Shown here: positions 14,310 through 15,968 of the stretch, piece after piece | How the letters are laid out: each line of letters starts with the position of its first letter | Position numbering within the stretch: the first letter of the stretch is position 1 | Source: a virus | Taxonomy: Duplodnaviria; Heunggongvirae; Uroviricota; Caudoviricetes | Direction: 5' to 3' (one strand) | Virus record (IMG/VR): IMGVR_UViG_2703718869_000013 | Location: 1-64,000 of that record | DNA: 64,000 bases | The notes under the pieces: generated by a model | Told to the model about the DNA's origin: nothing | Database searches by the model: none | The model's input: the letters and a program-made list of their open reading frames with translations, nothing else | Made by a program: the position numbers and the translations under genes

Positions 14310-14337
14310 ATGCCCGGCATCAACCGGGCATTTTTTT
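14310..14337 (+). terminator. intrinsic terminator at convergence of two operons
   Basis: atgcccgg-catcaa-ccgggcat followed by ttttttt. Confidence 0.6.
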
Positions 14338-15371
14338 CATTCAGCCGCCACGGGCTTTAATACACCCGCATCGAGTAGTTTACGCGTCAACCACTGCTGG
14401 CCTTTACCCGTTAATTGAGGCGTCAACCGTATCTGGTAGCCATCTTCATCATCCAGCACCACTTCTTTCACCGTGAAATACCCGGCGTTGATGTACTGCT
14501 GGAACGGCACATTTTTACGTCCGCCGGACGCTATCAGGATGCCGTTCTCCCGTAACCAGGCAAACAGCGCATTTTGCTTAAGTCCAACAACCTTTGCAAA
14601 GTTCCCGATCAGGATTCCATTAGCCGCTGATACCCGGTCGGCAAAATCGACTTTAGGGGCGGCGGCCACCAGCTGTTGTTCCAACTGCATTTTCTGTTCT
14701 GCCAACTCGGCAGCCAGGCGCAGTGCTTCGGGGAGTGTTTGGGGGATCGCTGGAGAAGCCGTGCTAGCCTGCTGCAATTCTTCCAGTTTGTCGATCAGCG
14801 AACGGCGGACCGCTTTTGACTCGCGCGCGGCGACTCGCAGGGCTTGTTTGAAAGTCATGGTGATAATGTCTATGTTTGCACCATTTTTGCGACCTACACT
14901 TTTTGTGTAGGTCTCACCTTCAAGCTCATCTACAACCTTCTCAATAAACTTATTATTTCTTACTAATGGTTCCCCACATAACTTACGCGCCTCATTAACC
15001 ATCTTTAACAGCGTCTGGCTGTCGATTGTATCTCCGGTGTTGGGGATAGCATCCATGACCGGTGCTGGTGTGGTTGCTGTCAAAGGCTTTGTAACGACAA
15101 CATCTGGTTTGCTTGCTTTCATTCTGTGTGCCTCCTTGCGTGTTTCGGCTGCGACGGTTGCGTAATTCAGATGCCCCTGTTCGAGCAGGTATTCGCGGAT
15201 ATCAGACAACAGGATACGGTGAACCGCGTTCTTGTCCTTTCTCCGGTAAAGTTGTTTGGTGATCATGAAGTAGTTGGCAATAACGCCAGGTATATCCCTG
15301 GTACTGATACAGGCAGTGTGCTGTTCAATTGCCTCGATCATCTCTTCACGGGTAACTAACGATGTTCTCAT
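14337..15371 (-). CDS. ant: antirepressor Ant (immI copy 1), KilA-C/ORF6C-type C-terminal domain
   Basis: 344 aa; C-terminal domain shared with the 42015 and 41050 genes; coupled to upstream icd-like ORF. Confidence 0.65.
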   Translation of the reverse strand: MRTSLVTREEMIEAIEQHTACISTRDIPGVIANYFMITKQLYRRKDKNAVHRILLSDIREYLLEQGHLNYATVAAETRKEAHRMKASKPDVVVTKPLTATTPAPVMDAIPNTGDTIDSQTLLKMVNEARKLCGEPLVRNNKFIEKVVDELEGETYTKSVGRKNGANIDIITMTFKQALRVAARESKAVRRSLIDKLEELQQASTASPAIPQTLPEALRLAAELAEQKMQLEQQLVAAAPKVDFADRVSAANGILIGNFAKVVGLKQNALFAWLRENGILIASGGRKNVPFQQYINAGYFTVKEVVLDDEDGYQIRLTPQLTGKGQQWLTRKLLDAGVLKPVAAE

Positions 15372-15589
15372 AGTCCCTCCTGAGCAGAAGCGTTAACAGG
15401 GAGGCACCAGTAACTGAGAGAATTGCGTGAATAAGTGGAAAAGCGGGCAGAGAAAATACAGGGTGCATCCGGAAGCTGAGAGCGAGCCTCATCTTCTGTC
15501 GGTGCAATAACGAAGTGATAGTGACGTTTCTGGCAGGAGTAAAAGCGCCAGATAAATTCAGGGCGTGCGCAAGGATTGGCATTAACCAT
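15368..15589 (-). CDS. icd: Icd-like small protein (73 aa)
   Basis: 73-aa ORF directly upstream of and overlapping ant, downstream of the covarying RNA region. Confidence 0.45.
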   Translation of the reverse strand: MVNANPCARPEFIWRFYSCQKRHYHFVIAPTEDEARSQLPDAPCIFSARFSTYSRNSLSYWCLPVNASAQEGL

Positions 15590-15595
15590 AGTTAC

Positions 15596-15800
15596 GGCCT
15601 CATGTACAGGTTTAACAACCTGCTACCCGCTGTCAAACAGGTGGCAGGACGTGACGGGGTTGACAGACTGGCGTACATGAAACCAGCAGGCCGAAGCCTC
15701 CCCATCACGCCCCACCATAATTCGGGCGTAACGTGGTTTACGGACACAAAAATACCGCAATATCGGATATCTGCGGTTGTCCGCATGTACATTCAGGCTG
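15596..15800 (-). ncRNA. c4: c4-like antisense RNA region (immI copy 1), approximate bounds
   Basis: three mutually complementary sites (15601..15608, 15673..15679, 15784..15791) that covary with the second copy. Confidence 0.5.
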
Positions 15801-15890
15801 TCAAACCCGGTCGCAGAATTTACTACGACGTAGGAACTATAAGCCTGAACAACAGGAAGATCAATAGTCTGGCGTTCGATGGTAGTTTAT

Positions 15891-15923
15891 TTGCTCTAAT
15901 AAATCAAAATTATTAGAGCAATA
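15891..15923. promoter_or_regulatory. overlapping inverted pair of C1-type operators (14/17 and 16/17)
   Basis: tttgctctaataaatca and aaaattattagagcaat. Confidence 0.55.
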
Positions 15924-15968
15924 AGCGGTATCGTAAAAATCAATACAATCGCAATCATATGAATAGAA

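Follow-up and report, generated by a model that had tools for sequence, protein, structure and literature searches.

The question raised by the locus described here is why a phage-plasmid should carry the same RNA-controlled antirepressor operon twice, and whether the second copy merely repeats the first. The locus lies in a stretch of 64,000 nucleotides (nt) from IMG/VR virus record IMGVR_UViG_2703718869_000013 (positions 1 to 64,000; the window), which, to judge from its sequence, is part of a P1-like phage-plasmid with two complete c4-icd-ant (immI) operons, both on the minus strand. In P1 and P7, c4 is an antisense RNA that acts on the icd/ant mRNA (PMC8198154; P1 and P7 annotations). It pairs through its segments a' and b' with the sites a1/b1 and a2/b2, one target overlapping a ribosome binding site (PMC2864571, supplement; P1 GenBank annotation), and the heteroimmunity of the two phages rests on small nucleotide differences within immI (PMC6906374). 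We consider it likely that the window holds two P1-type immI operons which are keyed differently at b, that each c4 RNA acts on its own target, and that a wider range of immunity and anti-immunity is the consequence.

Two immI operons and their pairing sites

Copy 2 (42015-43606) is 98% identical to the immI region of P1 and lies between sim and kilA/repL, which is the canonical place of immI. Copy 1 (14337-15925) shows about 81% identity to P1 immI. It is an additional module, roughly 1.7 kb long, that separates dbn from gene 5, where P1 has a spacer of only 46 bp with a terminator; the junctions to both neighbours are clean. Together with its flanks, copy 1 is 99.9% identical to the Escherichia coli O157:H7 plasmid pF1273-3 (NZ_CP038378.1), and the same arrangement is found at the same dbn-gene 5 junction in six complete plasmids (98.0-99.9% identity) as well as in IMG/VR contigs. 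An assembly artefact or a co-integrate as the origin of the duplication is ruled out by these six plasmids and the clean junctions.

A preliminary description of the window had put the identity of the two regions at about 90%, which is close to the 88% mean column identity that we obtained over an alignment of about 1.66 kb. The differences are unevenly distributed. Between the constitutive promoter and the start codon of icd (278 nt), the copies disagree at 23 positions, nine of which make up three triplets. Apart from the triplets, the leader downstream of the promoter is about 96% identical, compared with only 77.5% for icd. Since the three 3-nt blocks stand in exact pairing register and are mutually complementary in each copy, chance can be excluded as their origin.

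The triplets fall into the three b sites (b1, b' and b2), each of which differs at three positions between the copies and reads GUUAGUG/CACUAAC in copy 2 and GUACAUG/CAUGUAC in copy 1, so that each c4 RNA fully matches only its own target. Within each copy, a' is an exact complement of a2 over 7 nt and b' of b2 over 8 nt. These are the sites from which a pairing system of the P1/P7 c4 type had been proposed: both copies contain matches to the Rfam C4 and c4-a1b1 families, the sites correspond to the annotated b1, b' and b2, and in each copy both outer sites are exact reverse complements of the middle one. Direct reading and a script agree with five of the six positions previously given for them, the first copy 2 site starting at 43288 and not at 43287. 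What had been overlooked is the second pairing site, a1/a'/a2 (UUGACAG/CUGUCAA), which is identical in both copies.

An alignment with the reference phages defines the alleles further. P1 carries a UUGACAG and b GUUAGUG, and P7 carries a UUAGCAG and b GAUUGUG. All six sites of copy 2 are identical to those of P1, which places it in the P1 specificity group, defined by the same a and the same b. Copy 1 shares a with P1 and has GUACAUG at b; its b' (CAUGUAC) differs at three of seven positions from that of P1 (CACUAAC) and at four of seven from that of P7 (CACAAUC), and it thus lies outside both groups.

The computed duplex energies follow the same pattern. The cognate b duplexes reach -11.7 and -11.9 kcal/mol, whereas the c4 RNA of copy 2 on b2 of copy 1 yields -1.8 kcal/mol and the c4 RNA of copy 1 on b2 of copy 2 forms an interrupted duplex of -6.0 kcal/mol. 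For comparison, the cross duplexes between P1 and P7 amount to -4.9 and -5.2 kcal/mol at b and to -3.6 and -6.7 kcal/mol at a (-3.2 and -3.3 kcal/mol with shorter flanks). The b sites of the two copies differ by three mismatches and those of the heteroimmune P1 and P7 by two. The a duplex amounts to -8.4 kcal/mol in every combination of the two copies. From these energies and the covariation described below, it can reasonably be inferred that the two copies do not cross-react, although the a site shared by both makes this an inference and no demonstration.

Both c4 RNAs adopt identical minimum-energy and centroid folds, namely a three-way junction with z = -4.8 for copy 1 and -4.6 for copy 2. 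The fold contains a stable tetraloop hairpin and leaves the b' hairpin loop and the a' junction strand unpaired. In copy 1, where it amounts to -44.9 kcal/mol, b' resides in a 9-nt hairpin loop and a' in a 7-nt junction strand. This RNA differs from P1 c4 only in the b' triplet and in one stem pair, which changes from G-U to G-C. On the target side, b2 of copy 1 overlaps the icd Shine-Dalgarno sequence GAGG (15598-15601), and b2 of copy 2 adjoins the icd ribosome binding site.

Downstream, both copies have unbroken icd and ant1 open reading frames and retain the ATGA overlap as well as the internal ant2 start; the latter consists of a Shine-Dalgarno sequence plus ATG or GTG at codon 84, and Ant contains an ANT/KilAC domain. 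Between the copies, the Icd proteins are 81% and the Ant1 proteins 77% identical. A Pfam search with Icd matched no Pfam family; in pF1273-3, the copy 1 gene is annotated as Icd-like. The consensus of the C1 operator matches at 12 places in the window (0.38 expected), and operators were found at both copies, in line with the earlier proposal that each carries its own. The two operators of copy 1 are inverted and share one base, the canonical immI having a single operator; such a pair may provide tighter C1 control of the extra module. Every sequence element of the P1 c4 model is intact in both copies (Table 1).

Table 1. Positions of the elements of both immI modules in the window; promoters are consensus matches, and scores in bits are followed by the gathering score of the family.
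Feature	Position	Strand	Remarks
Copy 1 C1 operators, inverted pair	15890-15922		15906-15922 on the minus strand, 1 mismatch; 15890-15906 on the plus strand, 3 mismatches; consensus scan
Copy 1 promoter-like site TTTACG-17-AATAAT	15909-15937	-	overlaps operator; consensus match only; same position as the C1-controlled P2c4/P51a of P1
Copy 1 promoter TTGATC-17-TATAGT	15836-15864	-	aligns with annotated P1c4/P51b of P1; consensus and position match only
Copy 1 c4-a1b1 structured leader (RF03163)	15790-15842	-	52.0 bits (46.7)
Copy 1 a1 UUGACAG	15798-15804	-	pairing with a' kept in 31 of 31 leaders
Copy 1 b1 GUACAUG	15784-15790	-	third site of the preliminary description; catgtaca on the plus strand from 15784
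Copy 1 c4 RNA	15640-15716	-	77 nt by homology with annotated P1 c4
Copy 1 Rfam C4 match (RF01695)	15637-15722	-	70.7 bits (45)
Copy 1 b' UCAUGUAC	15673-15680	-	middle site of the preliminary description; gtacatg on the plus strand from 15673
Copy 1 a' CUGUCAA	15660-15666	-	same in P1 and copy 2
Copy 1 a2 target UUGACAG	15630-15636	-	
Copy 1 b2 target GUACAUGA	15600-15607	-	first site of the preliminary description; catgtaca on the plus strand from 15601
Copy 1 icd	15368-15589	-	73 amino acids, intact; stop codon overlaps ant1 start (ATGA)
Copy 1 ant1	14337-15371	-	344 amino acids; Pfam ANT/KilAC, E = 7e-32
Copy 1 ant2 start, internal, in frame	15122-15120	-	preceded by AAGGAGG
Terminator-like hairpin, two-way	14310-14331		between copy 1 ant and gene 5
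Copy 2 C1 operator, single	43590-43606	-	equivalent to P1 Oc4/Op51; consensus scan and P1 annotation
Copy 2 promoter TTGACC-17-TATAGT	43523-43551	-	equivalent to P1c4/P51b of P1; consensus and position match
Copy 2 c4-a1b1 leader	43471-43529	-	RF03163 at 43477-43529, 55.5 bits (46.7)
Copy 2 a1	43485-43491	-	
Copy 2 b1 GUUAGUG	43471-43477	-	cactaaca on the plus strand from 43471
Copy 2 c4 RNA	43327-43403	-	77 nt; base for base the annotated P1 c4
Copy 2 Rfam C4 match (RF01695)	43324-43409	-	68.8 bits (45)
Copy 2 b' UCACUAAC	43360-43367	-	gttagtg on the plus strand from 43360
Copy 2 a' CUGUCAA	43347-43353	-	
Copy 2 a2 target	43317-43323	-	
Copy 2 b2 target GUUAGUGA	43287-43294	-	
Copy 2 icd	43055-43276	-	73 amino acids
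Copy 2 ant1/ant2	42015-43058	-	347 amino acids

Elsewhere in the window, four transfer RNA genes (Met-CAT, Thr, Tyr and Asn) are located at 18612-20866 on the minus strand, compared with three in the P1 annotation (Asn, Thr and Ile2-CAT), the Tyr gene being additional. A full-length match to Rfam IS009 (RF02111, 192 bits) is found at 57045-57243 on the plus strand.

Alleles of a and b among P1-like modules

To place the two copies among their relatives, we drew on at least 144 modules that were collected by two pattern scans of IMG/VR, the second with a degenerate pattern, and from reference loci, the IMG/VR counts being lower bounds. A scan of species-representative genomes yielded only three loci. 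Two different a' sequences occur in these modules (CUGUCAA and CUGCUAA), as against at least eight of b', namely CACUAAC (P1), CACAAUC (P7), CAUGUAC (copy 1), CAUUCGU, CGUAAGU, CACAAGU, CUUUGGU and CUUGAAC. When the six b alleles that are common or conserved in their leader are crossed with the two a alleles, 11 of the 12 combinations are present, and the type of copy 1, which joins the a of P1 to CAUGUAC, is a common one (16 of the at least 144 modules). The dbn-gene 5 site carries more than one b allele, and a given allele is found at several insertion sites.

Nearly all combinations of a and b thus exist, even though the two kinds of site are intermingled along the DNA (a1, b1, b', a', a2, b2). 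Swapping one allele while keeping the other would take three coordinated patches, for which short-patch conversion between co-resident modules or repeated mutation are possible routes.

Wherever b1 and b2 could be read, by script or, in two loci with diverged leaders (L123 and L140), by eye, they are exact complements of b', with one exception. This exception (L037) combines the b' of one allele with the b2 of another. It is situated on a draft contig of 4.9 kb, only 122 nt away from the contig end, and another contig of this genome (IMG genome 2565956613; locus L060) stops inside a module with the other allele. These draft contigs break within the conserved c4 leader; elements with several modules can evidently yield assembly chimeras there, and L037 is likely such a chimera. 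A further locus (L116; JAFAFU010000019.1) is an enterobacterial P1-type c4 module with the a of P7 and b' CGUAAGU on a 2.9-kb contig of a metagenome-assembled genome labelled 'Bacillota', and is probably a binning contaminant.

A covariation analysis of 31 distinct leaders bears out the pairing. The b'-b2, a'-a2, b1-b' and a1-a' helices are Watson-Crick paired throughout (100%), and in seven pairs both partners vary. The observed pairing and covariation scores were not reached in any of 500 shuffles, and when the partner was slid by one to three columns, pairing fell to 25-52%. The internal stems of c4 are essentially invariant or show one-sided changes only. Because there are only two a alleles and the complementarity at b is nevertheless always kept, pairing at a alone is evidently insufficient. 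From our point of view, this strict complementarity at b in the face of only two a alleles is the best argument that a c4 RNA with a foreign b' would not repress.

A number of replicons carry more than one module. In IMG/VR, at least eight contigs carry two or three modules, and of the 12 module pairs listed, all differ in b and six share a. PLSDB contains the conserved c4 leader at 683 places, which are spread over 575 plasmids, so that roughly one plasmid in six has an extra copy. Counting by allele-specific 38-mers, which gives raw numbers that ignore the kinship of the plasmids, assigned 60 places in 57 records to CAUGUAC, 120 in 120 to CACUAAC, 257 in 254 to CACAAUC, 73 in 73 to CAUUCGU and 162 in 156 to CGUAAGU. 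The sum of 672 places over 660 record incidences leaves 12 repeats of the same b within one record, as against about 25 that would be expected from the allele frequencies among roughly 97 extra modules. The one such repeat that was inspected, in pE2865-1, differs in a. The modules of one replicon almost always differ in a or in b.

Some of these elements are of interest in their own right. The 103-kb IMG/VR contig 651053023_000001 (loci L014, L135 and L084) contains three modules with one a allele and three b alleles, and two of these modules follow each other in tandem at a distance of only about 1.8 kb. In pE2865-1 (L144; NZ_AP018809.1, 474-6511), an immI module stands beside genes for a SIR2-family protein, a type III restriction enzyme and a cre-like integrase, and this site represents a fourth insertion hot spot. 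The plasmid pF1273-3, which shares copy 1 with the window, has a third c4-icd-ant module that lies outside the window between pacB and c1 (L146, 23560-25300; about 47.6-49.3 kb in NZ_CP038378.1). This module is much more divergent, has an Rfam C4 match of 75.9 bits and its own C1 operator, and differs again in its pairing sites, with b' CCUUGGAC facing GUCUAAGG through a G-U wobble and a' AGGCCAA. Upstream of its C4 RNA, an isrK-like RNA (RF01394, 60.8 bits) replaces c4-a1b1, and its ant, seemingly split, is probably disrupted.

Does each c4 RNA keep to its own target?

In P1 and P7, c4 is cut from the operon transcript as an RNA of about 77 nt, RNase P acting at the 5' end, and genetic work identified it as a repressor that acts in trans. 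By homology with P1 and P7, the transcript of each operon in the window would be processed in the same way, and the loop b' and the junction strand a' of the product would bind b2 and a2 on transcripts of this kind and cover the icd ribosome binding site. Since ant is coupled to icd, a block at this site would also stop the synthesis of antirepressor, so that C1 would keep the prophage silent. A lysogen with two c4 specificities could then silence the ant genes that arrive with P1-like phages from two heteroimmune groups. As a phage, in turn, the element would bring along two ant genes, and a resident prophage would have to match both in order to remain repressed.

Several points weigh against this interpretation. 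A perfect 7-bp duplex at a (-8.4 kcal/mol) is common to the two copies, whereas P1 and P7 differ at a and b, and the duplex of -6.0 kcal/mol leaves partial cross-repression of the copy 2 target by the c4 RNA of copy 1 possible. The depletion of same-b duplicates in PLSDB is about two-fold and not absolute, in counts that take no account of plasmid kinship. Furthermore, the co-residence of different alleles is by itself no proof of orthogonality, because cross-repression would be harmless to a lysogen. Finally, homology is the basis on which we ascribe 77-nt processing and repression in trans to the modules and activity to the Ant of copy 1, and the heteroimmunity of P1 and P7 is the basis on which wider immunity and wider anti-immunity are proposed as the rationale.

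The first of these points could also be read as signs that the two modules are redundant, with the shared a site and the residual pairing at b allowing each c4 RNA to repress both ant genes, and with the difference at b being a historical mark of origin. The identity of a1, a' and a2 in the two copies would suit such a reading, and co-residence does not speak against it, given that a lysogen would be unharmed. We nevertheless regard redundancy as improbable. It would leave the strict complementarity at b in about 140 modules unaccounted for, and likewise the diversity of at least eight b alleles as against two a alleles, and same-b duplicates would not be expected to be depleted (12 observed, about 25 expected). 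Moreover, the discrimination at b between the copies, with three mismatches, is at least that between the heteroimmune P1 and P7, with two.

A different question is whether the sites act in trans at all. A single transcript contains all of them in a span of about 200 nt, and covariation is as strict for b1 and a1 as it is for b2 and a2, although the role of a1/b1 is merely 'putative' in the P1 GenBank annotation. One could therefore imagine that the sites act in cis, with alternative intramolecular folds gating icd translation or c4 processing, in which case the covariation would reflect internal structure. According to a published proposal (PMC2864571, supplement), a1/b1 would compete with a2/b2 for c4, and a contribution of a1/b1 in cis is compatible with two differently keyed operons as well. 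As the sole explanation, however, action in cis appears very unlikely to us, as it stands against the description of P1/P7 c4 as an antisense RNA on the icd/ant mRNA and against the very stable stem-junction fold (z about -4.7) that presents a' and b' unpaired.

The apparent disruption of ant in the third module of pF1273-3 indicates that modules can decay, but that copy 1 is an inert passenger of recombination with another P1-like element, or that the duplication is an artefact or co-integrate, is hardly conceivable given that its promoter-like sites, operators, c4 fold, six pairing sites, icd, ant1, ant2 start and hairpin are all intact and that the same insertion recurs at the same junction, with clean borders to dbn and gene 5, in six independent complete plasmids and in IMG/VR contigs.

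Relation to known systems and meaning for P1-like phage-plasmids

The RNA family, its targets and the compensatory basis of its specificity are already known, and the mechanism proposed here for two differently keyed operons is established P1/P7 biology; as such, no new category is opened. Copy 2 agrees with P1 immI in its c4 RNA, a and b sites, operator, promoters and neighbours. Copy 1 is built in the same way throughout, but differs from P1 by another b allele, by the paired inverted operators and by occupying a site that is empty in P1. Copy 1 follows the same principle as P7, in which compensatory substitutions in c4 and in both target pairs alter specificity within an otherwise nearly unchanged leader. 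P7, however, departs from P1 at a and b, whereas copy 1 does so at b only and with another b sequence. Furthermore, P1 and P7 are two distinct phages, whereas the element described here unites two specificities on one replicon.

Extra copies of c4/icd(/ant) are also found in other plasmids of the P1- and D6-like group, namely pYU39_89, pSvP1, RCS47 and pTZ20_1P. For pYU39_89, another stretch with homology to c4 and icd was mentioned in passing (PMC6799933), as were extra icd-ant genes for pSvP1 and pTZ20_1P; icd-ant1/2 homologues were recorded at the res-mod locus of pSvP1, and a further note concerns an extra ant between pacB and c1 (PMC6906374). In the literature searched, which did not extend to Gilcrease & Casjens 2018 and Lobocka 2004, we found no analysis of the repertoire of pairing-site alleles or of one replicon that combines modules with different keys, and an earlier description of such modules may exist. 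Salmonella isrK (RF01394) has a counterpart in the third module of pF1273-3 only and is absent from the two copies in the window.

Further afield, short loops of antisense RNAs also set specificity in ColE1 (RNA I/RNA II) and R1 (CopA/CopT), where a few compensatory changes give rise to new compatible types. These RNAs are unrelated to c4 and control replication, whereas c4 controls an antirepressor. The targets of c4, unlike theirs, are separate short sites in the same transcript and on the same strand.

One could speculate beyond the two copies that P1-like phage-plasmids use a combinatorial RNA lock-and-key built from two a and at least eight b alleles, each allele being written three times per module, and that two to four such modules are stacked at the hot spots sim-kilA, dbn-gene 5, pacB-c1 and cre/res. 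We put this forward tentatively, as a possibility for which the evidence does not quite tip the balance. If it were true, a lysogen would gain the ability to silence further incoming relatives with every module added, and each added antirepressor would be neutralised only by a resident prophage with the matching key, amounting to an RNA-coded arms race among plasmid prophages. The element in the window would then be a three-key example, with two of its keys inside the window.

Independently of this, the modules represent a natural experiment on the diversification of RNA-RNA recognition, in that the leader is nearly frozen and yet accommodates at least eight b and two a alleles, each of them consistent at three separate places. 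If b alone sets specificity, the alleles would constitute a ready-made set of orthogonal antisense regulators. In the same case, module content would predict superinfection and exclusion among P1-like phage-plasmids, many of which carry resistance genes in E. coli and Salmonella.

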